In this document: piece by piece, positions 7,784 to 53,400 of the stretch | How positions within the stretch are numbered: the first letter of the stretch is position 1 | How the letters are laid out: each line of letters opens with the position of its first letter | DNA from: Eledone cirrhosa | Taxonomy: Eukaryota | Direction: 5' to 3' | Assembly: GCA_964016885.1 (NCBI GenBank) | Contig: OZ024741.1 | Coordinates: 16,492,001-16,556,000, forward strand | DNA length: 64,000 nucleotides | Position numbers and translations under genes: made by a program | The notes under the pieces: model-generated | Databases searched by the model: none | What the model was told of the DNA's origin: nothing | Seen by the model: only the letters and a program-made list of their open reading frames with translations

Positions 7784-8089
7784 TTGTCAACTCTTATTAA
7801 TGGTCAGTCCACTTCTACGAAATGTAATGTAAAAAATACCATTTTCTTCTCACCATTCTTCGGTTCATTCCTCCATATATCTGTATAATCGCCCAGAATC
7901 CAATCCTGCTTTCTCAATGCTATTCTATAATTCTGTCTGGCTGTTCTAAATAATCTTGTGTATTTTAAAATTCCAGTATATCGCTTATTACTTTTATATG
8001 CTTTATTTAAAACCTTCTCCTTGCTAACTACTCCATACCCCTCCCACCCGCCCCCACTCTCCACCATTATTATTTGGACCAATCATAAG

Positions 8090-11000
8090 TCAGCGGCCTA
8101 TGCTATCACTTCCCCTGGTTGCTTTTCGATATGATGGATGGACTAAGGAATTCTGGAGAGTCTGAAGAATCTGGACACTCAGTGACAATGCCAAAGATAA
8201 CGACAGATTCACCTCATGCTGCCGGACGAAAGGGCAAGGACTCCTCCTCTTTGTTTCGGCCGCGGACCGCCCACCAAACGTAATCCAAAACTTCAGAGTT
8301 GGTACCATGAATGTAGGCACCTTAAAAGGTCGCTCAAACGAGGTTGTAGAAATGCTTGAACGTAAGGAGGTTGATGTTTGCTGTATCCAAGAGACCAGAG
8401 GGAGGGGCGGGTCTGCTAAATTCATTGTGGTTAAAAAACGATGCCATAAGCTTTTCTGGGTGGGAAATGACAATGGGCTGGGTGGAGTAGGAATCATGTT
8501 AGCAGAAAAATGGGTGGATAAGATAATAGACGTAAATAGAGTGAACGACAGAATAATTAAAATAAGACTTGTTCTAAATAGAACTACTGTGACAGTAATA
8601 TCTGCGTACACACTCTAATCCGGACTGCCTGGCGCTATAAAAGACAGATTCTATGAGACACTGATGCTCACTACCTCCCAAATAACCGACAGTGACTATA
8701 TAATTATTGCTAGCGACCTAAATGGTCACGTTGGACAACATTGTGACGGCTATGACGGAATCCATGGAGGCTATGGGTTTGGTACTAGAAATGAGGAAGG
8801 CTCCAGAATCCTGGAATTCTGTGACTCAAATAACCTAACTATCTGTAACACTAACTTCAAAAAACGAGACAATCACTTGATCACCTACAGATCAGGGGAA
8901 CATACCAGCCAGGTAGATTATATCCTTACCAGAAGACGTGACAGAGTGCCTGTTGTAAACACTAAATCCCTCCCCCATGAAGAATGCACCTCTCAACATA
9001 GACTCATAATTAGCGACCTCATAGTCAGGACGAGACGTACTCGACAACAGAAGAGGACTATGCTCAGGAGAAAAATATGGAAGCTGAAGGACACCACAGC
9101 CAGTAATAAATTTCAAAGCATATTACTTGATGCTTTCGACAGTAAGGAAGAGCAATTAGAGTCGTACAATATAGAGGAACAGTGGGAATTCCTGAAAGCA
9201 AACCTGCTGATGGCGGCAGATGAAGTCTGTGGCTGGAGCAGGCCTATAGGCAGGAGGAGAATAACGTGGTGGTGGAAGAGTAAGGTGGAGGAGTCAATTA
9301 AGGCCAAAAAGCAGGCTTGGAAAGTATGGCGGGATGGGGGAAGTAGAGAATACTATCAAGTGGCCAGGAGGGAAGCTAGGAGACAAGTGTACTTCGCAAG
9401 AAGGGAAGCAGAGGAAAGAAAGTTCAAGCATGTTCTACAACGCGAGGACCAAACACGTGAGGTGTTCAGGATTGCTAGGCAATGTGTCAAGGAAAACCGT
9501 GATATTGTCGGGGAGAAGTATGTCCTTAATGATGATGGTGTACTTGCCATCACTGACGCTGATAAGAATGTAGCTTGGAAGTGTCACTACGAAAGGCTGC
9601 TAAATGAGGAGAATAAATGGGAGAAAGACAGTCTCCCCCACATCAATCCAATAGAGGGACCAGCAGTGTTAGTCGAAGGTAGTATAATAAGTAAGGCAAT
9701 CAAAGATATGAAGACGGGTAAGGCGGCTGGGCCTTCGGAAATAGTTGCTGAAATGCTGAAAGCTTCTGGAACGGTGGGACACACTGTGGTCACCCGGATA
9801 GTAAACCAAGCCATACAGAATGGGGTTGTTCCGAAGGACTGGCGTAGCATCATCATCATTAACTGCTACAAGGGTAAAGGAGATACCCTAGATAGGGGTA
9901 ACTATAGAGGCATTAAATTAATCGACCAGGTCATGAAGGTCACAGAAAAAGTAATAGCGCAACTAATCAGAGAGCGAATTGATCTAGATGAAATGCAGTT
10001 CGGGTTTGTGTCAGGTAAAAGTACCACAGACGCTCTTTTCATTGTACGACAACTACAGGAGAAGTACCTAGCTAAAAGTAAACCCATATACTTAGCTTTT
10101 GTCGACTTGGAGAAAGCCTTTGACAGAATCCCCCGTTCCATTATCTGGTGGGCTCTTAGAAAACTAGGTGTTGATGAATGGCTTGTGAGAGCTATACAAG
10201 CCATGTATAAAGAAACAGTCAGCAAGGTTAGAATTAACAACGAATATAGTGAAGAGTTTAGCGTAAAAGTTGGTGTTCATCAGGGCTCCGTTCTTAGCCC
10301 CCTACTATTTATTATTGCCCTTCAGGCTATAACAGAGGAGTTCAAGACCGGCTGCCCATGGGGACTCCTATACGCAGATGATCTAACGCTCATAGCTGAA
10401 TCAATGGCTGAACTAGAGAAGAAATTCCAAACATGGAAGCATGGCCTAGAATCAAAAGGCCTTAAAATTAACCTGTCTAAGACTAAAGTTCTAGTTTGTA
10501 GGAAGGAAAATAGGGCACCGGTCCCATCCGGGAAATGGCCATGCTCAGTGTGTAGGAAAGGAGTAGGCAGAAACTCCATTTTATGTCCCAAATGCAAAGT
10601 ATGGGTGCATAAAAGATGTAGTGGGATCACAGGTAAGCTAACTAAGAATATAGATTTTATATGTGGCCGGTGCTCAGGTGCAATAAGTAGCAGCAAGTGA
10701 CCACAAAATACTAGCTCATTCCATTGCACAGATGGTTCTATAGAAATATTGGACACCTTCCGATACTTGGATGACAAAATCAGCAGTGGTGGAGGGTGCT
10801 CTGAAGGTACAGTAGCTAGAGTCAGAACTGGATGGAAAAAGTTCAGAGAGCTTATACCACTATTAGCCGCTAAAGGTTTCTCTCTAAAAATGAAAGGCAG
10901 GCTGTATGATGCCTGCATACGAACAGCAATGTTACATGGCAGTGAGACTTGGGCATTGTGTGCAGAGGATATACGCAGACTGGTGAGGAATGAAGCTTGC

Positions 11001-12740: not shown

Positions 12741-12769
<29 letters not shown>

Positions 12770-12776
<7 letters not shown>

Positions 12777-13327
12777 TAAAAGGAATTCCACTTTGTCTGA
12801 TTTACTCGTTTTATTTACAAAACTTTAAAATTGTAATGGTATTAGAATGAAATAGTATGGTAAAATATTAAATGTTAAGTGTTAATTGAACAAGTAATTT
12901 CATGCTTTCGCAATCTTCAGGTTTATATTCTGTGGTGACAGTCAAGTTTGCAATTTTCAACTGTAATGAGATGGGTAAATTTTGTGTCTTATATACAGTG
13001 AAAAGCGGCTACAGAATGCTAAATTTTGCAAACTGTATTTCGACCAATCGGTGTGTAGTTTCACTGGATTACTGAAGCTGATTGGTTTAGGCGTCACGGT
13101 TGGCTGAGCATGTCTAACGACTTCTATTTGACCCCATCCAAAGCATCAATTGACTGTCACCACAGAATATGAACCTGAAGATTGCGAAAGCATGAAATTA
13201 CTTGTTCAGTTAACACTCAACATTTAATATTCTACCATACTATTTCATTCTAATACCATTATAATTTTAAAGGATTGTAAATAAAACAAGTAAATCAGAC
13301 AAAGTTGGAATTCCTTTTATTAATATA
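12770..13327. mobile_element. ~175-bp inverted repeat element, each arm with a minimal HHR-like motif
   Basis: Arms 12770-12945 and 13150-13327. tgaac CTGAAGA ttgcgaaagcat GAAA ttac TT gttca at 13170-13208 (+) and 12887-12925 (-). Confidence 0.7.
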
Positions 13328-13362
13328 ATTTTCTATGCACAATCATACACACCCGTGTATAA

Positions 13363-13420
<58 letters not shown>

Positions 13421-13609: not shown

Positions 13610-15430
13610 TCACCGCACCCCACTGCACCGCACAACACCGCACTGCACAATATCACACTGCACCGCACCACACTGCACTGCATCGCACCACACTGCACCA
13701 CACCACATCACACTGCACCACGTCACATCACACCACACTTCACCACACCACATAAAAACATACATCACTACACCACTCCACACTACTCCACACCACATAG
13801 CAACACAACACACCACTCCTCACTACATCACACCACATAAGAACACACAACACTACACCACATAAGAACACACCACACTACTCCACATAAGAACACACAA
13901 CACTACACCACATAAGAACACACCACACTACTCCACATAAGAACACACCACACTACTCCACACCACATAACACCACAACACAACACACCACTCCTCACTA
14001 CATCACACCACATAAGAACACACAACACTACTCCACAAAAAACCACAATACAACACACCACTCCTCACTACATCACACCACACTACTCCACACTACATAG
14101 CACCCGAAATTTTTTCCTCATCTTTTTATCATGTGTTATCAACTAATCCGAACTCCAAGATGTTTGTTATTGACTCTCTCTTCATGGAAAACGTAGGTGG
14201 AGGCACTTCTCTCATTTAACCACAGAGTTTTCTCTAAGATTTTTCGTATGTTATCAACGAATATGACCTCCAAACCAGTTGGAAATGATTAGTTGTTCTA
14301 GAAAAAAGGAGGGGTAAAGCGGGTGGAAAAACCATTGTCATTTTGTAGATATATACCCTAATGATTTTTCTTCGGTCTCCTTTTGAGTGCTATCAAGTAA
14401 TCTGACCTTTTAGTTGCTCTGAATCAATTTTTTTTCCTGGGATTTGGAAACTAAAACTAAATTAAACTTAAAATTAAATCTAGCCCCAACCCTAAACTAT
14501 AAATCTAAACCAAACCAAGCTAAATCTAAATATAAACATTACCCCAACCCTTAAACTAAACCCTAAACTATATCCCAACCATAAAACTAACCTCTAAACA
14601 TTACCCCAACCATAAAACTAAACCCTAAACATTACCCCAACCCTAAACCTAACCCAGGGAAATAAGTTGATTGGAAGCATCTAGGAGGTCAGATTAATTA
14701 ATAGCACAGGAAATATACCGAAAATGATTAAGTCCCACAACATGTGAGTGGGTGTAGATCTGCAAAACGCTTCCCCCTCCCTCTCCTCTTTCTCCAAAGC
14801 TAGTTGTTTTTGACTGGTTTGGAAGTCATATTCACTGATAACGCATGAAAATAGAATCAAAGAGGAAATTCCGAGTAAGCAGGGGTTATCCGGGTGAAGG
14901 GGGAACCACCTCACCCCGCCGTTTTCCTGGGGGGAAAAAGTCAGTTTCAAGCCTCTTGATAGTACATGAAAAATAGGATGAAAAAATTTCACATCACACC
15001 ACTCCACACGCCACATCACATCACACCACATCGCACGACACCACACCACACCACATCACATCACACCACTTCACATCACACCACATCACATCACACCACG
15101 CCACATTTCACCACACCACACGTCACCACATCACACTACACCACACCACATCACACCACATCACATCACATCACATCACAGCACATCTCACCACACCACA
15201 CCACGCCCCATCACACCACATCACATCACATGCCATCACACCACATCACACCACACGCTACCACACTACATCCCACCACACTCCACTACACCATATCCCC
15301 CAACCTACATTGAACCACACTCCACTCCACCACACCACTGTCCACTACAATAAACCACACTCCACTACCCTACACTACACTAGACTACACTCCACTACAT
15401 TTCACCACACCACATTACACCACACCACTG
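13610..15430. repeat. (CACCA/CACTA)n-type degenerate repeats flanking an old palindromic element
   Basis: Pentamer tracts at 13610-14104 and 14991-15430. Diverged inverted arms at ~14106-14425 and ~14670-14990 enclose a ctaaa/cccaa-rich spacer. Confidence 0.7.
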
Positions 15431-15777: not shown

Positions 15778-16030
15778 CATCATCATCATCATCATCATCA
15801 TCATCGTTTAACGTCCATCTACCACGCTTGCATGGGTTTGGACGGGAATTTTCCCACTTGAGGCAAGATTGGTTGACTTGTTCGTATAGGACTGTCTGGC
15901 AGGTTTTCTACGGCTGGATGCCCTTCCTAACACCAACCACGTTTACAGTGTGGACTGCGAGGTTTTTACCGTGTTACCTACACAGCCACATTACAGCATG
16001 GACTGTATTTTTTTTCTCGTGACACCTACA
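15778..16030 (-). mobile_element. 5'-truncated 3'UTR copy of the RTE at 8.1-11.7 kb
   Basis: Reverse complement of ~11470-11722 including the (GAT)n tail. Confidence 0.9.
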
Positions 16031-16050
16031 TATATATATATATATATATA

Positions 16051-17110
16051 TATATCATAAAACGTGTCTATAGAATCAATCAGATATTAAAATATATACT
16101 ATTTCTTCCTCTAATCAGCATAATTAACCATATACATAATCAAATCCAGCAAGCTTTAAGAGTAAATTTTCCAGTTAGAAAATTTACTCTTAAAGCTTGC
16201 TGGATTTGATTATGTATATGGTTAATTATGCTGATTAGAGGAAGAAATAGTATATATTTTAATATCTGATTGATTCTATAGACACGTTTTATGATATAAT
16301 GCTCTGAATTTTTTGATTTTAACTTATTAATTCTTCATTGAGCTTAAAAGTGAACAGTTGCAACACATATATGTATCATTGATTTAATTTAATTTAATTT
16401 TATGTATGTGATAACCTCTATATTTAATAATCTCCCTATCGGTTGAGATTAAATTTGGCGATATATAGCTGTGCTTTCTAGCAGCATGCCTACCCGCCGT
16501 AAGCGACCAATCACACGCTTTGTCTCTGGCTGGTACACAGCTACATAGCGATCTTAGCCATTTTTTAATCTAAATTTGGCGGGGTCTGTCTGAGAAATTA
16601 AATGTCTATTTCTGAGTTTGTCTCCTGATGATAATCCTGACTCGGGACAGTCCATATTATTTGGATGTCCTAAACAAGGAAGAAACTATGGTCGAGATAT
16701 AATTACGGTATGTGCGCATTTCTTCTAAGTTTAATTTTACTACTAATTACGTGCGGTTGACGATATGTTTGATCGGATTCTGCATGCTGCCGAAGTGTTT
16801 GATAAATAATGGAACGGGGTTAACGCGAACTGGCTGCGATCAGTTATTTGTCGGAGATTTCCCAGTTAGAAAATTTACTCTTAAAGCTTGCTGGATTTGA
16901 TTATGTATATGGTTAATTATGCTGATTAGAGGAAGAAATAGTATATATTTTAATATCTGATTGATTCTATAGACACGTTTTATGATATAATGCTCTGAAT
17001 TTTTTGATTTTAACTTATTAATTCTTCATTGAGCTTAAAAGTGAACAGTTGCAACACATATATGTATCATTGATTTAATTTAATTTAATTTTATGTATGT
17101 GATAACCTCT
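16051..17110 (+). mobile_element. 691-nt HHR unit with a 249-bp tandem overlap and a 120-bp 5' inversion (Penelope-style, non-coding)
   Basis: 16171-16419 matches 16862-17110; 16051-16170 is the inverse of 16179-16298; inserted in (TA)n. Confidence 0.85.
16619..16699 (+). ncRNA. Type I hammerhead ribozyme, GUC site, extended stem II
   Basis: tgtctc CTGATGA taatcct..ggacagtcca..tggatgtcc..agga a GAAAC tatg GTC gagata. Confidence 0.85.
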
Positions 17111-17139
17111 CTCTCTCTATATATATATATATGAGCTCC

Positions 17140-20100
17140 CCAGAAAAAAGAGGGAGGATGTGGGTGGAAATACCATTTACAAAGCTAGTCATTTTTTATT
17201 GCAGCGGAAGTGATATTTTTTGTTAATATGCTAAAAGCATAGTCCACTGCGACCATGTTGGAAGTTGTATTAGTTGATAGCTCATGCAAAAATGATGGAA
17301 ATATTTTTTTCCTAACATAAATCAAAGTGGAAATTTAAATCCTTACTTATAACAAAGCACATCACACCACATTAATCTACCCCAAACCACACCATATCAA
17401 ACTACACCATACTTCACCATATGGTAAATTTATTACAGAACACCTACTCCTACCATTTACATCGCACCCTGTTATGGACATCAATGTGACAAATTTGCTA
17501 CCTGTTTTTTTTTTTGTGGTTACCACCTAAACTAACATCAAAGGTGGTGCTTGCAAATGACTATTTTCCCACACATTATCAATGAATATGACATGGGAAT
17601 CTATCGTTTACAATTGGTTTCCATTTTATAACTACACCAAAAAAAACAAACCATACCATGTTACATCATACTACATCACACCAAGCTATTGATCTTGGTG
17701 TGAAAAACTTTCTTCCCGTTTCCTTTTTTTTTTATTTGGGTGTGTGCTTACCACCCAATCTGACATTAAAGGTGCTCCCAATTGACTATATTTTTTCACA
17801 TATCAATAATAATGACATGGAAACCTATCGAAAATGACTATCTTTGTAGAAACTTCACAAAACCACACTTTTGGTGTGACAAATTTTCATCTGGCATTGT
17901 TTTGTTTTTTTGTGCTTACAACCCAATTTGACATAAATGGTGCTCGCAAATTACTATTTTTTGCACATATTATCAATGGTTATGACATGGAAACCTGATG
18001 AAAAATGACAAGCTTTGTAGAAAAAAGAGGGAGGATGTGGGTGGAAATACCATTTACAAAGCTAGTCATTTTTTATTGCAGCGGAAGTGATATTTTTTGT
18101 TAATATGCTAAAAGCATAGTCCACTGCCAGCTTCTTGGAAGTTGATAGCACATGCAAAAATGATGGAAATATTTTTTTTCTAACATAAATCAAAGTGGAA
18201 ATTGAAATTCTTACTTATAACAAAGCACTCCACACCACATTAATCTACCCCAAACCACACCATATCAAACTATACCATACTTAACCATATGGTAAATTTA
18301 TTACAGAACACCTACTCCTACCATTTACCTCACACCCTGGTATGGACATTATGGTATGGACATCAATGTGACAAAATTGCTACCTGCTTTTTTTTGTGGT
18401 TACCACCTAAACAAACATCAAAGGTGCTTGCAAATGACTATTTCCCCACACATTATCAATGAATATGACATGGGAATCTATCGTTTACAATTGGTTTCCA
18501 TTTCATAATTACACCAAATCAAACCATACCAAGTTACACTGTACTACATCAAACCAAGCTCTTGATCTTGGTGTGAAAAACTTTCTTCCCGTTTCCTTTT
18601 TTTTAATTATTATTTGTGTGTGTGCTTACCACCCAATCTGACATTAAAGGTGCTCCCAATTGACTATTTTTTTCATATTTTCATATATCAATAATTATGA
18701 CATGTAAACCTGTCGAAAATGACTATCTTTGTAGAAACTTCACAAAACAATACCATACAGCAACACACCAAGCTATTGATTTTGGTGAGACAAATTTTCA
18801 TCTGCCATTTATTTATTTTTTTTTTGGCGGGGGGGCTTACCACCCAAACTAACATCAAAGGTGCCTGCAAATGACCATTTTCCCACACATTATCAATGAA
18901 TATGACATGGGAATCTATCGTTTACAATTGGTTTCCATTTCATAACTACTCCAAACCAAACCATACCAAGTTACACAGTACTACATCACACCAAGCTATT
19001 GATCTTGATGTGAAAAACTTTATTCCCGTTTCCTTTTTTTTTTTTATTTGGGTGTGTGCTTACCACCCAATCTGACATTAAAGGTGCTCCCAATTGACTA
19101 TTTTTTTCATATTTTCATATATCAATAATTATGACATGTAAACCTGTCGAAAATGACTATCTTTGTAGAAACTTCACAAAACAATACCATACAGCAACAC
19201 ACCAAGCTATTGATTTTGGTGAGACAAATTTTCATCTGCCATTTATTTATTTTTTTTTTGGCGGGGGGGCTTACCACCCAAACTAACATCAAAGGTGCCT
19301 GCAAATGACCATTTTCCCACACATTATCAATGAATATGACATGGGAATCTATCGTTTACAATTGGTTTCCATTTCATAACTACTCCAAACCAAACCATAC
19401 CAAGTTACACAGTACTACATCACACCAAGCTATTGATCTTGATGTGAAAAACTTTATTCCCGTTTCCTTTTTTTTTTTTATTTGGGTGTGTGCTTACCAC
19501 CCAATCTGACATTAAAGGTGCTCCCAATTGACTATTTTTTTCATATTTTCATATATCAATAATTATGACATGTAAACCTGTCGAAAATGACTATCTTTGT
19601 AGAAACTTCACAAAACAATACCATACAGCAACACACCAAGCTATTGATTTTGGTGAGACAAATTTTCATCTGCCATTTATTTATTTTTTTTTTGGCGGGG
19701 GGGCTTACCACCCAAACTAACATCAAAGGTGCCTGCAAATGACCATTTTCCCACACATTATCAATGAATATGACATGGGAATCTATCGTTTACAATTGGT
19801 TTCCATTTCATAACTACTCCAAACCAAACCATACCAAGTTACACAGTACTACATCACACCAAGCTATTGATCTTGATGTGAAAAACTTTATTCCCGTTTC
19901 CTTTTTTTTTTTTATTTGGGTGTGTGCTTACCACCCAATCTGACATTAAAGGTGCTCCCAATTGACTATTTTTTTCATATTTTCATATATCAATAATTAT
20001 GACATGTAAACCTGTCGAAAATGACTATCTTTGTAGAAACTTCACAAAACAATACCATACAGCAACACGCCAAGCTATTAATTTTGGTGAGACAAATTTT

Positions 20101-39199: not shown

Positions 39200-39436
39200 A
39201 ATAATAATTGTTTCTACATTTGGCACAAGGCCAGCAATTAATCCAGTGTATTACTGGTACTTTATTTTATCGACCCCGTAAGGATGAAAGGCAAAGTTAA
39301 TATAATAATAATAAATTCAATTATACTCATTGGAAGCCTTTTTGTGCGGGATTTAAACTCAGACCATAAAGGGCCGTAACTCTTTGCTGCAAAGCATGGC
39401 GTACAACCCTCTACCGATACTGCCAATCCACCGCCC

Positions 39437-39437
<1 letters not shown>
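39200..39437 (-). mobile_element. SINE copy with a ~45-bp internal insert
   Basis: Matches 38381-38578, with added tataataataataaattcaattatactcattggaagcctttttg. Confidence 0.8.
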
Positions 39438-39486
<49 letters not shown>

Positions 39487-39487
39487 C

Positions 39488-41560
39488 TGATAATGAAAGA
39501 CCGAATCAAGGGTAATGATGTTACCAACTATAGACCTATCACATGTCTGCCCGTAATGTGGAAACTGTTGACGAGCATTGTGTCTGAGGAAATCTACCAT
39601 CACCTCCACACAAACAACTTGTTGCCGGACGAACAGAAAGGATGCCGAAAGAAGTCACGTGGTAAAAAGGACCAGTTGCTTATTGATAAGATGGTAATGG
39701 GGAATTGCAGGAGGAGACACACTGATCTTGCCATGGGATGGATAGACTACAGAAAGGCATTTGACATGGTGCCTCATTCCTGGATCACCAAAAGCCTGGA
39801 GATCTTCAGGGTGGCAGATAACATCAGACAGTTGCTGGGCAGGAGTATGGGGTCCTGGGAGACAGAGTTGACATCAACTGGAGTATCCTTGGGAAGCGTG
39901 AAGATCAAGAGAGGTATCTTCCAGGGAGATAGCCTGTCCCCTCTGTTGTTTGTCCTTGCCCTGATGCCCTTGACCATTATGCTGCGAAAAGTGAGAGCAG
40001 GATACAAGTTGGGAAGGGGAGAGCTTACCATCAATCACCTCCTCTTCATGGACGATCTTAAGCTCTTCGGGAAAAGTGAGAAGGAGTTGGATGTGCTTGT
40101 TGACACTGTCCGTATTTTCAGCAGTGATATATGTATGCAGTTTGGTATTGGTAAATGTGGAGTCATTGTGATGAGGAGGGGTAGGTTGAGCAGAAGTAAC
40201 GGGATCCAGATACCAACAGGTGAGATGATAAAGGAAATTGACTCTGAGGAAGGACACAAGTATTTGGGCGTTCTGGAGGCTGATGGCATAAAGAACAAAA
40301 AAATGAAGGAATTGTTAAGAACTGAATACATTCGGAGAGTAAGGAGCGTATTGAAGTCACATCTGAACAGCAGAAATGCCATAAGCGCAGTAAATTCCCG
40401 AGCTGTGTCTATTATTAGGTACAGTGCGGGAATTCTGAGATGGAATGTTGCTGAACAAAAAGAAATGGATAGGAAGACTAGGAAGCTATTGACTATCTAC
40501 AACATGTTCCACAGGAGGAGTGATGTCGATAGACTCTACCTAAGGAGATCTGAGGGTGGAAGAGGTCTTATCAGCATAGAGGACTGTGTTCAGATGGAGA
40601 AAAACAACCTATACAAATACGTGACCTATAGTAAGGAGCCAATGCTCAGAGCTGTACTGAAGGAGGGGACAGTAGGCCAGGGGATACCCAAGGAGGAAAT
40701 AACATCAAGGAGGAAGAGCAGCCTTAAGGGAAAATCCCTTCATAGTACCTTCTTTGAGAAAACTGAATTTAGAGATCCACAGACATGGAACTGGTTGAGA
40801 AGAGGAGACCTCAAAAAGGCTACAGAAGGAATGCTAATGGCTGCGCAGGAGCAGGCCCTCAAAACGAAGTGGTTGAAGCACCATATCTACAAGGAGGAGG
40901 CTAGCCCACTGTGCAGGATCTGTGGAGAGAGAGAGGAGACTGTGGCTCACATTGTGTCCGAGTGTAAACACCTAGCCCAGACCCACTATAAGGGCTGGAG
41001 ACACGATGTGATGGGCAGGGTGATCCACTGGCACCTGTGCAAAGTAAACAATCTACCACATTCTGAGAAATGGTATGAGCATAGGCCAGAGGCGGTGATG
41101 GAGAACAGTCAGGTGAAGGTGCTGTGGGATTTTAGGATACAGACGGACAAAAAACTGGAACACAATAGACCTGACCTGGTGGTTGTGGACAAAGAAAAAA
41201 GATCGTGCCTGATTGTGGATGTGGCCTGCCCGTTCGACACGAGAGTGCAAGAGAAGGAGAGGGAGAAAATTAACCGATACCAGGACCTAAAGTGGGAGGT
41301 GAAAAGGATTTGGAACTGCCATGAAGTCAAAGTGATCCCGATTGTCATAGGCGCACTGGGTTATATCTCCAAAGGTTTCCAGGGATGGTTAAAGAAAATC
41401 GGCCCCTTCACGCTTTTTGGAACGCTTCAAAAGGCATGCTTGCTTGGAACGGCAAGAACCCTCCGATACGTCCTGAATATCTGAGGCTGCAGGTAGTGGC
41501 TTGATATTCAATCCAACGGACTTTCCAGTTAACCAACATCAATGACTGAGATTCAAGGAA
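39488..41560 (+). mobile_element. 5'-truncated R4/Dong retrotransposon (family A) in (TAA)n
   Basis: Uninterrupted 663-aa ORF; (TAA)n on both sides. Confidence 0.92.
39493..41484 (+). CDS. R4/Dong RT, CCHC knuckle and restriction-like endonuclease (N-terminally truncated)
   Basis: [52 protein letters not shown]. Confidence 0.9.
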
Positions 41561-41584: not shown

Positions 41585-44500
41585 TGATTTCTTTATTAAC
41601 CACAAGGGTTTACATAAAGTAGACATTAAGGACAGCGCAGGACAATACAGGACGGTACAAATGGGCATTTCTGCGTGTAAAAAACAAAAACAGAGGATGT
41701 AACAAAAAATAACAATGAAAAATTCCCCAATAGGGGGGAGACTTCGGAGGGACATTTGTGGAGAAAGCCCAGTAAAAGGCCACAGTGACCCTGACCACCA
41801 AGGCAAGTGCCCTCTCCCAGTTTTCCACCTTTAATTTACAGATACATACTCAGAGATACATACTCGGGCCATTCTTGCTTCTCTCACCCATCTTTCAACA
41901 AAATGCTGGGAAGAGAGCACTTCCCTCCCTACTCTGATTTTCCTTTTCAAATGAAATTTGAAAAAGTCAATCAGGGCATCACCGAAGAGGTAAGTGCTCG
42001 CCTTCAGTCCTTTCAAACGTGTCCACCATACTATCTCTTTCGCCATGACCACAAGACAGATAAAAACTGCCTGCCCTTCCGGGCTAAAGGAAGAGGGCGG
42101 GGCAATCCTCACGATGGACTCAGATGATAGCCGGATCCGTCCTACACGCGACAGCAGGTGTTTGACATAAACCCACAAGTTAGCAATTTTCGGACACTGG
42201 ACGAGTGCGTGCAGGACGGTTTCGTCGCCCTGCGCGCATCTCGGACATGCCCGGCTGACGGCACCTCCATGCCTGTAGAGTTTATCTCGAACTGGCAAGG
42301 CTCCTCGGTAGCACTGCCAGGCCAGAGATTTCTGGAAGTTGTCCATAGGCCCCGGCCCGAAAGTTCTTCCGAAGAGATTGGCTAGTTGATTTTCGTCGAC
42401 GCCTAGAGTTTCCCCAAGTACGTCGTCGCTCTTCCCCTCCACTAATCCTCTATAGAACGCCAAGGTGGAGTTTCCACCGATCACATTGCCCGATTGGTCG
42501 AGGGCTGTGAGCGCCTGAAGACATTCCAGTCTCCAAGCGCTCCCTCTCGGTCTTCGCTTGACCCAGGACTGCAGCTCCGTCAAGGAGACGAGCTGGGGAA
42601 AGACGTGTCTAGCAAACGGCGACCACACCTGATCACCGTCAAGGAAGAGGTGAAGATGTCGTAGCCTGAGCGCGTGTCTGCGCATCATCAGCCACGGCAT
42701 ATCCAGCCCTCCACGTAGCGAGTGTTGACAGCAGATCGACCGCCTGACCATCAGAGCGCGTCCCTTCCACAAAAAGCGAAAGAGCAAACGCTCCAGCGCA
42801 GTCAGGCGGGGCTTAGGACAAGGTACGACGGTCAGGCGGTAGTAGATGACGGACGCGATGTACGCGTTAACCACCTCCGCTCGACCTTTCAGGGATAACT
42901 TCCTCTCCGCCCATTTCTGGGTAAGAGAAGCCACCCTGCTCGTCACCTCGTCCCAGTTTTTGTCCGTCTGGAGATCCGGACCGAACCAGAACCCTAGCAA
43001 TTTAACCGGTCCGTCCGTCCAGCGCCCGACGACGCTGTTGGACGGCATGGACCTGCCTCTCCAGGTGCCGAGCTGCAGGCCCACTGACTTTTCCTGGTTG
43101 ATCATTGCTCCTGTCACCGCTTCGTATTCTCTTAGTGTAGTGCCGATCGCCTCGATGTGTTTGGCGTTCGACACCACTACGGTGACATCGTCCGCATATG
43201 CTGACACGGATCTTCCGCATCCTAGTTCGCGCGGGACCCCCCTCAACGTCTCCAGTTTGTGCAGCAATGGCTCGAGAGTCAATACGTACAAGAGGGACGA
43301 GAGGGGACATCCTTGGCGGACCGAGCGCATGATGTTGAACGGTTCAGAAAGGTGACCGTTCACTCTCACCACAGAGCAGATGTCACTGTGCATGGCAGCA
43401 ATCCAGCCTCTGAAGACGGGCCCAAAGCCAGCGGCCCTCAGGACTGCTGCTAAGTAACGATGGTCGACCCTATCGAAAGCTTTCGACTGATCTAAATTGA
43501 TCAAGGACCCACCCGTGCCAGGTTCCCTAGCTACCCTCTCTACGATGTATCGCATGCGGTGGAGGTTGTCGTGGATGGATCTGTCGGGAATGGCGCATGT
43601 CTGCGCCTCTCCCACCAGACCACCAACGACAAGCGCCAACCTCTTTGCTAGCACCTTGGCCAAAATCTTGAACTCTGTATTTAGCAGAGTTATGGGCCTG
43701 AAATTATCTATGTTATCCCCCTTGTTCGGATCCTTTCTCAGCAGCTCCTCGGCTCACAGAGCTGGGAATTCTCCCGTTCTGTTGCCAGTTGCAGTAGACG
43801 TCTGCCAAGAGGCCTCCGAACAAGTCTGGCATCTGTACGTAAAGTTCATAGGGCAGACCATCCAAACCAGGCGATTTACCCCTTGTGCAGCCAGTCATTG
43901 CCTCCCGTACTTCAGCAGCTGTTATCGGCTTTTGGCAACACTCCGCCTCAGTGGTCGAGAGTCGCGGCAGTCCGTAGAGGTAGACACTAAAGTCCATCCC
44001 TCGATCCGGCCCGCCGCTGCCCCCGAACAGCTGTGCGAAGTGTCGCTGAAAAGCTTTACACATTTGCCCGGGATCGAGTAGCATGCGCCCGTCGTGGTCC
44101 ACCAAAGACCGGATCGTGGCTTTGTTGCCACGACGTGCCTCCGCCACTCGGGCCCATTGAACGGCTTTCGTCCCCTCGTGTCTGAGAGCACGCACCCTAG
44201 CTCTGACAACGCAGCCTTCGTGCTTTGCATTGAAGAATTGGTCAAGGGCCAATTTCGCTGCAAGTACGTCGGTCGCGATGCCTTTGTAAAGCGCCCCGTC
44301 TAATTTTCTAACTAATTCTCCCTCTGCTCTATTTTTCTCTATTGCTAAAGCCTTACTAAACCTAATGGACTCTATTCTAATTGCTCTTTTCAGAGCAAAC
44401 CACCACTTGTTGTTGACGATGGCCCCCGTCAACGCCCGCTTAACTAGTTCGCTAATCCGATCTCTGTAGGCCTTGCGCGCTGGTAAGGGCGCGTTTAGCT

Positions 44501-47443
44501 TCCAGTAGCCGGGTCCTCGTCTATGAAGCCTATCTACGTCAAGCACACAGATCACGAATTTGTGGTCCGTGTAGCTGACTATCTTGAATTGTGGACAACC
44601 TATGCTAGACCTATCTATTTCCCTACAAAATACTCTATCTAGATATGATCTGGATGACCCTATGCGATTTGTCCAAGTCCACATTGGCACATTCGGGAAA
44701 TCCAATCGGTACCTGTCAGATAGTTCAAAACGCCTGAGCAGGTTGGTGAGACTCTTGCACCCTCCTCCCCTATTCGCTAATCCCACACAGTCCCAGCGTG
44801 CATCTAAGATCCCGTTCCAGTCGTCCACTAACACTAAAGAGCGGGACGTTCCAAGAAAGGTCTCCAGACGCCGGAAGAAATCAGGCCACCCTGCTCCTGT
44901 CGGGGCATAGACGGCCACTAACCTGAAAGCTTGCCCGTCTCCGCTGGTCACGTTCAGCACCACCAACTTACCTTCTGGGTCCAGGAAGATGGCCCGTATG
45001 GCAAGATCCAAACCTCTCCGAAAAAGCACAGCAACTCCTCCCCCCGATCCCGGACGGCTGGGAGATGCGTACACATCGTAGCCGCCGAAGATCGGTGCGA
45101 AGGCCCGTGCTTCGGAGATTCTGGTCTCGCTGATGGCCACTACATCTATGTTTAGTGACCTGAGGTCGTTGAGCAGGTGACCCTGCTTCCATGACGACCC
45201 CAAGTCACGTGCATTTATGCTGCCTATTCTGAGTGAGGTCATGTTGAAAAGGAGTGGAAAAGATGGCAAAGACCACTTACCTTACTCCTCGTAGAGGAAG
45301 GACGATTTCTCCATCCCTTTCACTGCTTGTAGCCTCCTCAGGAAGGATGTCCTAATAAATCCTCCTGGAGAGTGCTTGTCGGAAGTCTCCGATGTCTTTG
45401 GGGAATTTTTATTTTAGTGTCATGTACGTTTTCTGTGTGATGCGAGTGATTTGTATGTGTGGAGGTGGTGTGAACTTTTGGGTTGTTGTGTAGTCTTTTT
45501 CTGTGATGCTAGTGTTGTTTTGGATGTAGTGTAATAATTGCTTGTTGTTCAAATTTAATGCTGTGTAGTGTGTATCGTTTTGGTTCTTTTGTTTTGTTTG
45601 TGTTTGTTGTGGGTTTGTTTCTGTTTCGCTTTTTGGTGTTGGTGATGGTGGTGTTAGGGTTAATGATGGTGATGGTGTTGGTGTTTGTAGTGATGGGGTT
45701 GGTGATGCTGGTGTGGATGGTGGCATATCTGTCCTAACTTTTTTGTTTGATAGTTTATTTGTTTCCCTCTGTATTTTGTTTTTGGAGGGGGAAGGAAGAG
45801 AATTTTTTCTTTTTTGGTTTCTTTTTTTCTTTTTTCCTGATACCGTTTCCCACTCCTCGTCGTCACAATCTGTCTCCAGTTGTGATAGGCCGGGGAGTGG
45901 AAAATCCTCCACAGCCGTTAGTTTTGGTTGTGGCGTGGTGGATGGTGTAGGCGCTGGTGCTAGTTCTGGCGCGTTGGGTGGTGGTGGTGTTGGTTTTCCT
46001 ACTGTTGTTGGGGTTGTTGCTGTTACAGTTGCTCCTGTTGTTGCTGCTACAGTTGTTGCTGCCATCTCTGCTGCTGGTGGTGTTGATGGTTGAGTCACTG
46101 GGGTGGGTAGGAGAGGTGGCCTCAACCTTTTAGCCTGAGGGTAGAAAGCCCTTAGGTGGGTTCCTTCACCACAAACGACACACCTAGGCCTTCTGCCCCC
46201 GACAATTACGGTGAGGTGGCTGCCGTCAGTGGGGTCTATTACCTCTGGGATCTCCTCAATGCTTTTTTGGTCCGCTTGGATCAGGAGCTCCATCCCAGAT
46301 CCGGACCAGTTCTCCTGCTTTTCTTTCGCTATTTCGATCATCTTGGTGTTGGCTTCGATGCCGGCGAGGATGGCAGCTATTAGCCAGGGAATTTCGATGG
46401 CCGGTGGAACGTGGGTGACCCTGATCTTTACGAGTCTCTGGCCACAATAGCTTGGGACGAGTGTGAAGTCGTCACTTCTTAATGGGGCCATGGAGGGTTC
46501 TCTAGCCTCCTGTGGTGTTTCAAAGAACACGTCCACGGTTCCATACTTCTGCCCACGTCTGATGTGGGTTTTTTTGCCCACACATGTCCCAAAGCTTTTT
46601 GGATTTGGGACTCGGATGTCCGTTCCACTCGGCGCGATTTTATATTAATTGTTCGATAAGACACGGTGCATAGGCGCCTATGCTCCATTTTATTAGGTGT
46701 GTGTGTGTGTGGGGGGGGGGGGGGCTGACCCTGTACCCATCTTTCTTTACCATTTTTTTGGCTTCTTCTAATTCCCCCTGAGTTACCTGAAATGCTTCGC
46801 ACTGTTTTGCTACTCTGGCAAAACTCAGGGTGGTTTTCTTAATGTCATTGTTGCTGTTGTTGTTATCGTTATTTTTGTTATTATTAATTTTAGTTTCAGT
46901 TGTGGTGGTGGTGGCGTCAGTGGTATTCGGTGTGGAAGAGTTCATTTTGGTTGAATTCATTTCGATATCACGAGTTAATTTATTTTTTATTTTGTTTCTG
47001 TTGTCGCGGTGGTGGTGGGGGTGGTGGTTGTCGCGGTGGTGGTGGTGGTGGTGACGGCTTTAACACCTGCAGTCATTGGCAATGGCAGGAAATGAATGTC
47101 TGCCTGAGACAAATTTAAAATATTGCTACTGCTTATATTTTTAGTGTTGGCAAACGTAGTAATATTTACAATGGTGGTGTCGGTGTGAGGTGTTAGTTTG
47201 TGAGAAAGGAGTGACTCTGAGTCAGCCATGATTTTTCAAAGAAAAATTTTTGTTTGATAATTATAAAAGTTTAAATTTTGGGCTCAAGGCCCCAATCTTT
47301 TTGGATGTCCTCTTCAGATAACAATGTATGTGCACTTATATACAGTTAACAATAAAAAATTTCCATGAATGGAAATTTTAAACAACTGAAAATAACAAAC
47401 CTTTGCGGAGCTCACGATGATACGATTTACTACGTAGGTCGTC
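41585..47443 (-). mobile_element. Full-length Tx1-clade (L1 group) element, copy A
   Basis: ORF1 ~47229-45280 (frameshifted; degenerate knuckle CVVC..H); ORF2 APE, RT and Zn finger; ends aataaagaaatc(att)n; (TAA)n at both ends. Confidence 0.92.
41831..45242 (-). pseudogene. Tx1 ORF2 (APE-RT) with one frameshift near 43745
   Basis: ISET, YTDH, LDQSKAFD, VRQGCPLS, YADD, CPRC..HALVQC. Confidence 0.9.
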
Positions 47444-47478: not shown

Positions 47479-50400
47479 TTTCTTTATTGGCCACAAGGGC
47501 TGACATCAAGAAAAACATCACAGACGGAACAGGACGGTACGATGTGGGTTTTGTGCGTGTAAATATTTTTATTATTTATATAAGAAAAGAAAAAAAGACA
47601 TAAAACATATATATATATAAACAATAAAAGGAAAATTGAAACAATGAAAAATTCCCCAATAGGAGGGAAACCTCCGAGGGTTACTCGTGGCGAAAACCAC
47701 ACAAAAGACCACGGCCACCCTGACTACCAGGGCAAGCGCCCTCTCTCAATTTTTCCATCTCTCAAACTACAGACGTATATTCAGAGTGGTCCCGTCCACT
47801 CGGACCATTCTCGCTACATTCACCCACCTTTCAACAAACTTGCTAGAAAGCAGCACTTGCTTCTCCACCATGATTTTCCTCTTCAAGTGAAACTTGAAAA
47901 AGTTAATCAGGGATTCGCCGAAGAGGAAAGTGTTTGTCTTTAATCCTTTTAACCACACAATCTCTTTCGCCATGGCCACCAGGCAGATGAAAACCGCCTG
48001 CCCTTCCTCCTCAAAGGAAGACGGCGAGACCATCTGCACAATGGACTCAGTCGACAACCGGATCAGTCCCACACGTGACAGCAACTGTTCGACATAGCTC
48101 CACAAGTCAGCAATGCTCGGGCACTGAACGAGTGCGTGCACAACGGTTTCGTCGCTATGCGCGCATCTCGGACAGGCTCGGCTGACGGCACTTCCGTGCC
48201 TGTAGAGCTTATCTCGAACCGGCAGCGCTCCCCGGTAGCACTGCCAGGCCAGGGATTTTTGGAAGTTATCCATAGGCCCCGGGCTGAAAGTTCTCCGGAA
48301 GAGAGCAAGCAGCTGATCTTCTTCGACGCCCAGGATCTCTCCGAGAACGTCGTCGCTCTTCCCCTCCACTAGTCCTCTATAGAACGCCGAGGTGGATGTT
48401 CCACCGATACTGGTGCCCAACTGGGAGAGGGCAGTGAGCGCCTGGAGACATTCCAGTTTCCAAGCGCTATCCCTCGGTCTTTTTCTGACCCAGGACTGCA
48501 GCTCCGTCAAGGAGACGAGCTGTGGGAAAATGTGCCTGGCGAACGGCGACCACACCCGTTCACCATCAAGGAAGCACCAGAGATGTCGCAGCCTCAGCGC
48601 ATGTTTGCGCATCATCAGCCATGGCATGCCCAGTCCTCCACGCAACGGGTGTTGACAGCAGATGGATCGTCTGACCATGGGAGCGCGTCCCTTTCACAAA
48701 AAGCGGAAGAGGAGGCGCTCCATTTTGGTGAGAGTTGGGCTGGAGCAAGGGACGACGGTGAGGCGGTAGCAGATGACGGATGCGATGTACGCATTCGCCA
48801 CTTCCGCCCGGCCTTTCAGGGACAGCTTCCTCTCAACCCATTTCTGGGTGAGGGAGGCCACCCTGCTCGTCACCTCGTTCCAGTTTTTCTCCATCTGGAG
48901 GTCCGGTCCGAACCAGACCCCGAGCAATTTAACCGGTCCGTCCGTCCAACGCCCCACGACGCTGTCGGACGGCATGGACTTGCCTCTCCAGGTGCCTAGC
49001 TGCAAGCCCACCGACTTTTCCTGGTTTATCTTTGCTCCTGTCACCGTTTCGTATTCCTTGAGAGCGGTGCCGAGCATCTGGACGTGTCTGGTGCTCGACA
49101 CCACCACGGTGACGTCGTCAGCGTAAGCCGACTCGGATTTCCTGCATCCTACTTCGCGTGGGACGCCCCTCATCGCCCCCAGTTTGTGCAGTAACAGCTC
49201 GAGAGCCAATACGTACAAGAGGGACGAGAGGGGACAACCCTGGCGGACTGAGCGCATGATGCTGAATGGCTGCGACAGGTGACCGTTCACCCTCACAACT
49301 GAGCAGATGTCGCTGTACATTGCTGCGATCCAACGCCTGAAAACGGGCCCGAAACCGGCTGCCTCGAGGACTGCCGCCAGGTACCGATGGTCGACCCTAT
49401 CGAATGCTTTGGATTGATCCAAGTTGATCAGGGCCCCACCCTTGCCAGGTTCCTTAACCACCCTCTCTATGATGTATCGCATGAGGTGGAGGTTGTCGTG
49501 TATGGATCTGTCCAGAATGGCGCATGTCTGCGCCTCTCCCACCAGACCCTTGACGACAAGCGCTAACCTCGTTGCTAACACCTTGGCCAAAATCTTGAAC
49601 TCTGCGTTTAGCAGAGTTATGGGCCTGAAATTATCAATAACATCCCCCTTGTTCGGGTCTTTTCTCAGCAGCGCCACTGCTCCCCGGCTCACAAAACTGG
49701 GAATGCTCCCGTTCTGCTGCCAGTTGCAGTAGACGTCTGCCAAGAGGTCACCGAACAAGTCTGGCATAAATGCATAATGCTCGTAGGGCAGACCATCTAA
49801 ACCTGGCGATTTACCTCTTGTGCAGTTAGCCATCGCTTCCCGTATTTCACCGGCTGTTATTGGCTTTTCGCAACACTGTGCTGCGGTCGTCGAGAGCCGA
49901 GGCAATCCGTCGAGGAATGCACTGAAGTCCACGTCCCGATCCGGGCCACCGCCGCTCCCGAACAGTTCAGCAAAGTGCTGCTGAAAAGCTTCACACATCC
50001 GCTCGGGTTCGAACATCACGCACCCGTTTTGGTCAGACAAAGACCGAATTGTGGCTTTATTGCCACGTCGCGCCTCTGCCACCCGGGCCCATTGGACGGC
50101 TTTTGTCCCCCCGTGTTTCAGAGCAGGCGCTCTAGCTCTGACAACGCAGCCTTCGTGTTTTGCGTTGAAGAATTGGTCGAGTGCCAATCTCGCCGCAAGC
50201 ACGTCGGTTGCGATGCCTGTCCTAAACGCCTCTTCTAGCTTTCTGACAAGCTCTCCCTCTACTCTATTTTCCTCTATCACTACTCCTTTGCTAAACCTAA
50301 TCGACTCTACTTTAATTGCCCTTTTCAGGGCGAACCACCACCTGTTGTTGACGACCGCTCCCGTCAACGCCCGCTTAACTAATACGCTAATCTGGTCTCT

Positions 50401-53400
50401 GTAGGCCTTGCGCGCCGGGAAAGACGCGTTCAGCTGCCAGTAACCAGGCCCTTGTCTATGAAGTCTGTCTATGTCGATCTCACAGATCACAAATTTGTGG
50501 TCTGTGTAGTCGACTATTTTAAATTGTGGACAACTTATACTAGCCTTATCTAGTTCCCTGCAGAATACCCTATCTAGATATGATCTGGATGACCCGATGC
50601 GGTTTGTCCATGTCCACATTGGCACATTCGGGTGATCCAGTCGATACCTGTCAGACAGTTCAAAACGTCTGAGCAGGTTGGTGAGGCTCTTGCACCCTCC
50701 TCCCCTATCCACTAGCCCCACACGATCCCAGCGTGCATCCAAGATACCGTTCCAGTCGCCCACTAACACTAAAGAGCGGGACGTTCCAAGAAACGTCTCT
50801 AGACGTCTGAAGAAATTTGGCCGTCCTGCCCCCGTTGGGGCGTAGACGGCTACTAGCCTGAAAGCTTTGCCTTCGCTGCCGGTCACGTCCAGCACCACCG
50901 ACTTACCTTCTGGGTCCAGGAAGATGGCCCGTATCGCGAGATCCAAGCCTCTCCGAAAAAGGACGGCAACCCCTCCCCCCGATCCTGGACGGCTGGGAGA
51001 TGCGTATACATCGTAGCCGCCGAAGATCGGTGCGAAGGCCCGTGCCTCGGAGATTCTGGTTTCACTGATGGCCACTACATCTATGTTTAGTGACCTGAGG
51101 TCATTGAGCAGGTGACCCTGCTTCTAAGATGACCCCAGGCCACGTGCATTTATACTGCCTATTCTGAGTACAGCCATGTTGGATGAGAAACGGGGCAAAT
51201 GAGAAAGGGTCACTTACCTTGTTCGTGGGGTGAAGGGACAGTAGAACCGTCCCTTTCGCTGGTCATGGGTGTTTCCAAGAGGATGTCAGTGTATATCCTC
51301 TTGGTAACCGTCCCTCTGAAGTCTCCAACTGCGTTGGGGAATTTTTGTTTTAAAGGTTTGTATTGTTCTAATGAGATTTCGATGATGCTTATGTTTGTCG
51401 GGAGAGTTCTTGGTGTTGGTGGGGTGTAGTAATTTTTTTCCGTGATGTCTGTGTGCTGCTTTATATATTTTATGAGTTCTTTTTTTTGCTATGTTTATGG
51501 CTGTGTACTTTTTGGGGGGAGGGGTGATTTTGTTGCCGTTTTCTTCTTGTTGCTGTTTGGTGTGTGTGTCTTGTTGTGTTTGCGTTGTTGGTGTTTGTGG
51601 TGGTGTTGCTGCAAGTTTCCTTGCTGCCTTTACCCCTCTTTGTATGCCTTCGCTTTTGGGAGGTGAATCTAAGTGTATTTTTGTTTTTTGTTTTTTGTGG
51701 CAGACTGTTTGCCACGTCGCTCCCGCCTCAAACTCCATGTCGGATTCTGTGGCGTCTGGGAGGGGTATGTGCTCCACTGCTGTTGGTGGTGGTAGTGGAG
51801 CCCTCTTCGGCAATGTTGTTGCTGGTGTAGCTATTTCAAATGTAGCTATTGACGTTGCCGCTACTGATGATGCTGCTTTAGTTATCCGTGGCCTCGGTAC
51901 GGGTGCTACGGACGTTGCCCTCCTACTCACCGTGGAAGGGGCTTCTTCGTTTGTTGCCTGTCCTGCTCTTGGTAGCAGCGGACCAGGTATTGGAAGGAGA
52001 GGGGCCCTCTTCGGTGTCTTCTGCGGGCAAAAGGCCCTGAGGTGACCTTTCGACCCACAGAGATAACATTTTGGCCGTCTTCCTTCTACACTTATAGGGA
52101 GTTGGAGTCCTTCCTCAAAGTCTATGATATCGGGGATAGCCTCGATACATTCCTGGTCAGTTTGTATAAGCATTTGCATGCCTATACCTGACTAGTTCTC
52201 TCTCCCTATTTTTTCTACTTGCAGCATGGTCGCCCTGTTCTCAATTCCAGCAAGGACAGACGCGGCCAGCCAAGGTATGGGCACGTCGGGTGGGACCTGG
52301 GTCACTTTGACCCTCACAATTTTCTGCCCGCAGTAGGAGGGCAACAAGACTAACTCCTCACTCTTTAGGGTTTCCAAAGAGTGAGACTTTGCTTCCTGGG
52401 GGGTGGCGAAAAGTACGTCTACTGTGGCGTACTTTCTGCCTCGGGTGATGTGGGTTTTGCGTGCCCAGACGCACCCCAATGCCTTTTGGATTTGAGCCTC
52501 CGTGGCTCTCTCCACTCGATGTGAGATTTTGCTTACGGTGCGGTAAGTCACCGTTCGTAGCTGCTAGTCCTTGGTGGAGGTTTCAGGGAAACTCTATTTG
52601 CGCTTCTTGTCACCATGGCTCTTGTGACTGCCATCTCCTCCTCTGTAACTAACACTGTCTCGATATTTCGGGCGACACCTGCAAAAGAAGTGGTCCCTTT
52701 TTCAGCAGCACCACTATTGCTGCCGCTACTGGTCTTACTGGTGGTTCTGAGGTCGCTATTACAGGTATCGGTGTCATTGTTGTTCTTTTCGCTGGTACAG
52801 TTGTTGGTGTTGTTTTCATTGATACTGTTGCTGCTGTTACTGTTATTGTGGCTGTTGTTATTATTGTTGTTTTTGTTGATACTGTTCCTACTATTATTGT
52901 TGTTGTGGCTGTTGTTATTGTCATTGTTATTGTCGTTCTCGACCTTACCGCTGTTATTTTTGTTATTGTTGTTCTCGACTTTACCGCTGTTATCTTTGGT
53001 GTTGTTGTTGATGTTGTTGGTGTTATTGTTGGTGTTGTTGTTGGTGTTATTGTTGGTGTTGTTTGTGTTAGAAATATTTGTTAATTTTAAATCTGTAACA
53101 ATCTTTTTTTCCTTTGTAATATTTTCGTTTATATTTACCTCCGCTGGAACGCTGTCTTGTTGACATGCTCATACAGTCTCCCTCTCTCTGTGTTGTCTGA
53201 CAGCGCTCTCTCTCTTTTTTGTGTTATCCATGTTGAAATTTTTCAAAAAATATTTTTACACAAATACGAATACGACACCCCGTAAAGGGGTGTCGTATTA
53301 TTTACTAGTGAACTAGTATTAGGTGGGTCACTTCTTCTAAACTTTTATCAAATTTAAAACTTGAATAAAAGGTTTAGAACGGTTGAAAAAGAGGTAAAAC

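Follow-up and report, generated by a model that had tools for sequence, protein, structure and literature searches.

A non-coding hammerhead retrozyme family of Eledone cirrhosa that inserts at TA repeats with two fixed 3′ ends

Structure of the window copy and its surroundings

We analysed a 64-kb stretch of the Eledone cirrhosa genome (hereafter the window) that contains a hammerhead-bearing element at 16051–17110, for which an earlier note had described a 691-nt unit in about 1.36 tandem copies preceded by a 5′ inversion. The tandem part is as described: a full 691-nt unit of subfamily A (16171–16861, forward strand) is followed by a second, partial unit (16862–17110, forward strand; unit positions 1–249, with q denoting position in the unit and q1 at 16171), the segments 16171–16419 and 16862–17110 are identical at 249 of 249 positions with a period of 691, and the forward part totals 940 nt, or 1.36 units. 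The inversion is also perfect, but it measures 121 bp (16051–16171 against 16178–16298) and not 120 bp. Nor is it a 5′ inversion: on the reverse strand, 16051–16171 corresponds to unit positions 8–128 and ends at 16051, exactly at a 3′ end used throughout the family (the proximal end, P) and abutting (TA)n, which makes it a second, outward-facing 3′ arm. The two arms meet head to head at 16166–16177, with one exactly shared base, five of six bases that fit both arms and a 6-nt loop at 16172–16177. While the left arm ends at P, the right arm ends at 17110 at the second site used by the family (the distal end, D). Both sites are also read through on the forward strand, P (…TTATGATATA) at 16290–16298 and 16981–16989, and D (…CCTCTATAT), which lies at the end of an internal TA-rich tract, at 16416–16426.

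On its left, the element adjoins an (AT)13 target microsatellite (16030–16055), whose last 5 nt, judged from the sequence and the family end context, are common with the end of the inverted arm. On its right, a (CT)4 run (17111–17118, forward strand) separates it from an (AT)7 target microsatellite (17119–17132). CT runs occur at several independent D ends in subfamily A, and the run seen here likely reflects slippage when copying starts.

The window copy is young, its repeats and arm being identical, and it encodes nothing of use (only three overlapping ATG open reading frames of at least 30 aa, each 33–38 aa), in agreement with the earlier description of a young hammerhead retroelement without coding capacity. 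GC content is 0.32 in the 2-kb bin containing the element, where the retrozyme criterion is under 45–50%. An extra A at position 137 is common to both repeats, and the single-copy part carries four substitutions (q297, q302, q352 and q517), each found in 1 of 24 loci; given the identity of the repeats and arm, these changes were likely already present in the template. Perfect identity of the repeats would also fit an assembly artefact, or duplication and inversion at the DNA level after insertion, but both ends fall on the P and D sites used by the whole family, and dozens of loci whose arms have diverged repeat this layout, which makes the explanation extremely improbable.

Open reading frames of the 64-kb window matched LINE-type reverse transcriptase (RT) and endonuclease domains and no protein of Penelope-like elements (PLEs). 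The LINE-type frames lie at 8619–10697, 39370–41481, 41834–45281, 47770–51123 and 56309–59644, the first with a PHD-finger match directly after its RT domain. A head-to-head remnant of the 3′ part of a coding Neptune-type family (L104; 84–90% identical) occupies 12769–13419. Roughly 10 nt past the right TA tract begins a tandem repeat (17142–19500) that is imperfect and has periods near 434 and 877 nt; related pieces, inverted, occur near 14100–14850.

Ribozyme, RNA fold and family

The type I hammerhead spans 16619–16699 on the forward strand, with predicted cleavage after 16693, and was the sole match when the window was scanned on both strands under strict type I criteria. As noted earlier, stem I has six base pairs (TGTCTC at 16619–16624 with GAGATA at 16694–16699, one pair being G-U) and the cleavage triplet is a GUC, which ends at 16693; the core further comprises CTGATGA (16625–16631) and GAAA (16682–16685). 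Stem II is long (50 nt, 16632–16681) and contains the previously described nested helices in the predicted fold, while stem III and its loop occupy 16685–16692. Searching Rfam gave no hammerhead match at the gathering score or at E values up to 10, only chance hairpin matches; we attribute the missing hammerhead match to the 50-nt stem II. The motif is not due to chance, since a gapped core pattern with ACCATGGT had 2,556 matches genome-wide compared to one for a reversed control.

Across subfamilies, the catalytic core and ACCATGGT are nearly invariant and the ends of stem II covary (TCCT/AGGA, TCCG/CGGA). The first stem II pair was T-A in 36, G-C in 25 and A-T in 16 of 122 ribozyme contexts, but A-C in 36, a tally with some double counts from overlapping loci. 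Stem ends were tabulated directly, since a one-column shift of stem II in the alignment kept RNAalifold from recovering the hammerhead. The near-palindromic stem III noted earlier applies to the window copy but not to the family, in which it is the perfect palindrome ACCATGGT: the T at 16687 (q517, C>T) occurs in 1 of 24 subfamily A loci. This change leaves the monomer fold energy as it was but makes the dimer helix weaker by prediction (-6.6 kcal/mol compared to -11.2). In animals, hammerheads of type I with this build are reported to act as dimers (PMC4209133), but in vitro only one of nine Xenopus retrozyme dimers cleaved (bioRxiv 10.64898/2026.07.22.740005), a point against the route favoured below.

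The earlier note had ranked this locus as the best candidate for experiments. It is instead an ordinary family member and not the best test substrate. With a single ribozyme, unit-length RNA could not be released by double cleavage, and this, together with the predicted weakening of the dimer stem III, makes the window copy a poor choice, whereas the at least two consecutive ribozymes that Li et al. take as the mark of an active retrozyme are present elsewhere in the family (two at L006, L007 and L010, three at L016/L032). Natural loci with several ribozymes lie at G000 C1:193285700-193288150 (three in tandem) and at C4:256951700-256952900 and C2:22970200-22971500 (two). In addition, in RNA transcribed from further upstream of the window copy, the 121-bp arm would pair with q8–128. 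A hint that some RNA is cleaved in vivo comes from 5′ ends at q524–527, just past the predicted cleavage site: there are 6 such ends among 144, where 0.8 would be expected if ends were uniform, which they are not. Two of the six belong to subfamilies without a TA patch at this place, and four have TA microhomology.

The unit folds better than its shuffles (z = -5.0, 20 shuffles). A predicted long-range helix (16219–16255 paired with 16710–16763, within 16219–16763 on the forward strand) is kept across 20 aligned units, in which 14 of 100 predicted pairs show two-sided change; among subfamilies it is maintained mostly through one-sided G-U/A-U/G-C changes and few two-sided ones. Conserved hairpins are predicted directly 3′ of P (GCTC…GAGC) and directly 3′ of D (ATCTCCC…GGTTGAGAT), and although both are conserved, neither had compensatory changes. 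A terminal hairpin is predicted at 16792–16861 (forward strand).

The superfamily has roughly 2,600 matches in the 3.0-Gb genome. Searching with the unique part of the unit revealed 2,725 candidate loci, of which the best 40 scored were 95–100% identical, and the 25-mer just before the common 3′ end had 2,630 exact matches. Three reference units of 691, 661 and 656–658 nt are 67–80% alike over their whole length. The unit is closed head to tail, non-coding and multi-copy, with a conserved hammerhead core; its head-to-tail series, which have no coding capacity or LTR structure, range from 1.36 units in the window to about 3.5 in L032. Like animal non-LTR retrozymes, as described in PMC7229834 and bioRxiv 10.64898/2026.07.22.740005, the family combines a non-coding head-to-tail unit, a type I hammerhead and low GC with a weak palindromic stem III suited to dimer cleavage and co-occurrence with PLEs. 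The monomer had been thought unusually long, but 691 nt lies inside the published range of retrozyme consensus lengths (51–972 bp, with a mean of 650 in ray-finned fishes; bioRxiv 10.64898/2026.07.22.740005). Earlier work has argued that retrozymes derive from PLEs. The window element is very probably a PLE-mobilised member of this non-coding superfamily.

Two fixed 3′ ends and their pairing

We mapped arms at 32 loci of subfamily A and at 60 loci picked off the list of motif matches, for the most part following chromosome order. A further 29 loci, found via a sister unit, are biased to long ends and were kept apart, and 16 loci picked by ribozyme pattern, blind to their ends, formed a replicate. 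The earlier note had raised permutation of ends among copies, but only 5′ ends vary: 3′ ends are fixed at P (q126–130, about 128) or D (q249–256, about 250). Both sites end in a UAUA-like patch, and (TA)4 or more follows 173 of 183 3′ ends (104 of 107 for P alone), compared to 5% of random windows. Single arms ended at P in 49 of 55 cases and at D in 6, with five others elsewhere and with short D arms under-sampled because the search motif lies upstream of P. On their 5′ side, 41 of 55 single arms have TA as well, and they are often cut at internal TA-rich patches.

Insertions with two arms almost always pair one short (P) and one long (D) end. Overall, 44 of 47 classifiable head-to-head pairs were P+D, while independent choice predicts half. 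The chromosome-order set held 30 pairs, of which 27 could be classed (one was at a locus edge and two had other ends), revealing 24 P+D, one P/P and two D/D pairs; one of the D/D pairs is L209, whose arm runs into a Neptune ORF. Subfamily A contributed 14 pairs, with 10 P+D, no P/P and no D/D (10/10 of those classifiable), the remainder being two that joined P to an intermediate end (q197, q202), one interrupted pair and one at an edge. The blind replicate gave P+D in 10 of 10 pairs. Compared with independent choice, binomial probabilities were 2e-5 for 24/27, 1e-3 for 10/10 in subfamily A and 6e-8 for the first 37 pairs. In the set biased to D and long ends we found 13 P+D, two D/D and five other pairs, and these two D/D pairs, together with the one P/P and two D/D pairs of the chromosome-order set, are the exceptions to the rule. 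The Penelope-like insertion geometry recognised earlier is borne out, with the (TA)n target and the P+D pairing as features that had been missed.

In 47 P/D pairs, a count that includes the biased set and leaves out the blind replicate, the P arm lies within the D arm 31 times, the D arm within the P arm 4 times and neither within the other 12 times. Such nesting, with about five pairs near-symmetric, would be expected if cDNA primed at D folded, was copied back and was resolved by the endonuclease at P, a route using the same element and enzyme that would also account for private alleles shared between arms. Self-priming and endonuclease-mediated resolution have each been proposed for PLEs (PMC3846280 and PMC8557442, respectively), and lopsided loss at the palindrome centre could yield non-nested arms too. 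Even so, in 16 of 47 pairs the P arm reaches beyond the D arm, the two arms of L206 have no overlap whatsoever, single arms end at P and not at D, and for another PLE in vitro work showed reverse transcription starting directly on the RNA at two sites (PMC11167929). We consider fold-back unlikely.

Arm junctions overlap by at least 2 nt in 32 of 62 cases. An intact cleavage site is spanned by 87 of 148 arms, and 47 of 148 exceed one unit, indicating that the templates were circles or uncleaved multimers.

A putative Neptune-type helper and a proposed route of insertion

The genome contains 10,597 GIY-YIG candidates. We examined 50 of these loci and found no coding partner whose end is homologous to the unit, apart from a 14-mer, and no examined coding element has the unit as its terminal repeat, while 21 of 57 Xenopus retrozyme families matched annotated PLEs (PMC7229834; bioRxiv 10.64898/2026.07.22.740005). 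In 17 translated frames a cysteine linker precedes the GIY-YIG domain, in most of them of the CX4CXXC form, which is a mark of Neptune and Nematis (PMC8557442); the coding elements are provisionally called Neptune-type here after this linker, and not from a tree. Coding elements with RT, GIY-YIG domain and CX4CXXC linker have inverted arms; one of their ends is short and the other tailed (tails of about 40 and 63 nt), and each lies in (TA)n. Because their geometry matches that of the retrozyme, one of them likely mobilises it in trans, and frames of 938 and 844 aa in the same genome are candidate near-intact helpers. Near-intact Neptune ORFs lie at G000 C1:145872300-145875100 and C5:100718000-100720500.

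These counts bear on an alternative in which a coding PLE is still active, the unit is its terminal repeat (pLTR) left on its own, and the locus in the window is a 5′-truncated copy. PLE copies are mostly truncated to one repeat (bioRxiv 10.64898/2026.07.22.740005; PMC4209133), PLE ORFs lie within the flanks of nine element loci plus L099, and the share of PLE content examined is small. However, in each of the 47 arms that exceed one unit the sequence runs on into that unit again, and subfamilies that are only 67–80% alike keep the same closed unit. The neighbouring ORFs at L099, L119, L184 and L204 are separate insertions, divided by TA tracts or by their own ends; L099 and L119 had been considered as coding elements carrying the unit and were rejected as separate insertions into TA tracts. 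This reading, which the earlier note had named as a way to refute its own, is already largely refuted and highly improbable. Three further leads were discarded: widely spaced motif pairs (L150–L154) had no PLE ORF between them, a C/A-rich loose end (run X5), which had suggested that an ORF begins behind the ribozyme, matched a single unrelated locus without an element, and a second loose end from sequencing reads had no match.

Two observations hint, at the level of sequence, at the L101 Neptune family as the helper. The 14-mer (16821–16834), which on the retrozyme side forms the apical part of the terminal hairpin, recurs exactly in the L101 terminal repeat near 8075–8090, with a chance probability of about 0.006 per family where several families were compared; past the 14-mer, the L101 repeat leads on to an E2F-like site. 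The second is found at L209:1641 and L234:8641, where a retrozyme arm is joined, with no TA tract, to a 5′-truncated Neptune ORF 98% like L101, which lies 3′ of the arm in L209 and comes from a family unrelated to the unit; the short end there is of Neptune origin, and its partner is a D end of the retrozyme. This join could be a template switch or a later insertion with deletion. We dropped it as a template switch that names the helper and kept it as a hint only, because divergence per copy is about 3% in the L209 arms and 1% in the Neptune part, so that the arms seem the older, a mismatch in age that possibly means two events. Our scans of the L101 and L119 Neptune families found no hammerhead. 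Separately, a coding Neptune-type family (L104, L105, L108 and L113) has a small hammerhead with the palindrome AGTACT near its 3′ end.

On balance we lean towards a recent insertion of a non-LTR retrozyme into (TA)n by the RT-endonuclease of a Neptune-type PLE, with both cut ends priming at P and D of the same RNA and the products joined by microhomology. Transcripts with at least two ribozymes would cleave as dimers via the palindromic stem III, and some would be ligated to circles, which are probably the template. The Neptune-type enzyme would cut (TA)n and, since TA repeats are self-complementary, both 3′ ends would be equivalent primers. The first end would anneal at the UAUA patch of P and be extended; RNA 3′ of P would stay single-stranded, so that the second end could anneal at D, about 110–125 nt downstream, and be extended by strand displacement. 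The two cDNAs would halt at variable points and join head to head by microhomology, while if one end alone were extended, its 5′ end would join the TA tract at an internal TA-rich patch.

We give the two-primer, one-RNA part of this route about even chances. Private alleles are shared by both arms and by all tandem units at L008 (3 sites), L099 (13 sites) and L030 (1 site), all three units of L032 share them at 3 sites, and the window repeats share their extra A, but these could stem from one homogeneous source locus or from later gene conversion. Among the sequences sampled, the nearest match to an arm was its sister in only 19 of 35 pairs (15 by a strict count), so arm identity denotes the same subfamily and not always the same molecule. 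An unlikely alternative has two RNAs held on an asymmetric enzyme dimer, whose nick registers differ so that the protein sets the pairing, and the RNAs copied may be linear multimers that were never cleaved. The two arms frequently diverge by several percent, ribozyme cleavage was unnecessary for insertion in vitro (PMC11167929), and L209/L234, if a single event, would imply two RNAs. Against this, private alleles are common to both arms, the L209 arms and Neptune part may date from two events, and arms are always of the same subfamily although many coexist, rare ones included (L175, 95% versus 76% for the best other; L158, 98% versus 88%).

Building on the preferred one-RNA route, we tentatively suggest that a dimer of a PLE-type enzyme uses a single circular ribozyme RNA to prime both (TA)n ends, each at its own fixed register, and keeps copying round the circle by strand displacement. 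If true, this one mechanism would account for three features of all endonuclease-positive PLEs (the tandem, the inverted arm and the one-sided tail), and the hammerhead RNA would be an independent parasite, unrelated in sequence to its helper, that borrows a ribozyme-less Neptune enzyme.

In LINE-1 twin priming, two target ends prime on one RNA, producing outward-facing arms, and the LINE-1-type 5′ inversion has a poly(A) end and non-overlapping arms. The retrozyme has no poly(A), its arms mostly overlap and repeat the same unit positions, and its default primer site lies upstream with the extra one downstream.

Inverted arms, one-sided tails and a (TA)n bias are already known for coding PLEs: endonuclease-positive Neptune and Naiad PLEs have a partial tandem, an adjacent inverted truncated copy, a tail at one end and (TA)n targeting, which is tied there to the CX2-5CXXC linker (PMC8557442, PMC3846280). 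The retrozyme differs in having no ORF, in a tail of about 110–125 nt compared to their 30–40, and in a tail rule quantified as P+D pairing. For the green anole Poseidon element PAc, two internal RT start sites whose spacing equals the genomic tail were shown in vitro, with both strands cut and extended (PMC11167929). The PAc sites are adjacent, are not homologous to the target and show no strand difference, whereas P and D are over 110 nt apart, match the TA target by 4–7 nt and are used once each per two-armed insertion. Non-autonomous elements of Chlamys such as MRC1 (PMC8557442) are likewise non-coding, multicopy, head-to-tail PLE derivatives, but they share 3′ sequence with autonomous families and mostly have no hammerhead, while the retrozyme has a hammerhead and no shared end was found.

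Compared with animal retrozymes, the Eledone family is set apart by dispersed insertions of one to four units, fixed 3′ ends, a strict (TA)n target, two arms and a 50-nt stem II. Target choice, fixed ends and inverted arms are undescribed for retrozymes in the available portions of PMC7229834 and bioRxiv 10.64898/2026.07.22.740005, although comparable families may be present in the supplements of the latter. Our literature search, which left older subscription Penelope papers outside its range, found no paper reporting fixed ends, a microsatellite target or a P+D rule for a retrozyme, or twin priming for PLEs. How retrozymes are copied into genomes, and how the inverted arms and one-sided tails of PLEs arise, appear as open questions in the literature consulted (bioRxiv 10.64898/2026.07.22.740005, PMC8557442, PMC3846280, PMC7229834). 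The family turns both into direct tests, as it offers a template that is short and non-coding, with both start sites mapped and the DNA target defined, besides natural products in the thousands and candidate helper ORFs, and its P+D rule is a sharp constraint for any model that can be tested in vitro.

The genome carries a varied set of such hammerhead RNAs. Pieces of related ribozymes also occur in small samples of sequencing reads from organisms B–D, which were kept out of the evidence. A tandem array at L100:218-3391 (G000:C3:308736200-308739400) represents a second retrozyme family, more canonical in that many ribozymes follow one another; it has six units of about 480–510 nt, and every unit contains a TA tract and a compact type I hammerhead with the palindrome ACTAGT. 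Further hammerhead families (L106:7462, L107:3979, L109:533, L109:6825, L111:8889, L099:9351 and L234 near 4300) are short TA-flanked elements with a long stem II and six-base palindromic loops (TGCGCA, TGATCA, TATATA). A divergent group of ACCATGGT hammerheads (L214–L217) was excluded from the family, having no similarity to the unit and no PLE ORF nearby. TA tracts also serve as nesting sites: at L163:11-1842, L175 and L016:2564-3229, independent insertions of different subfamilies are stacked in the same TA tract, some of them tail to tail.
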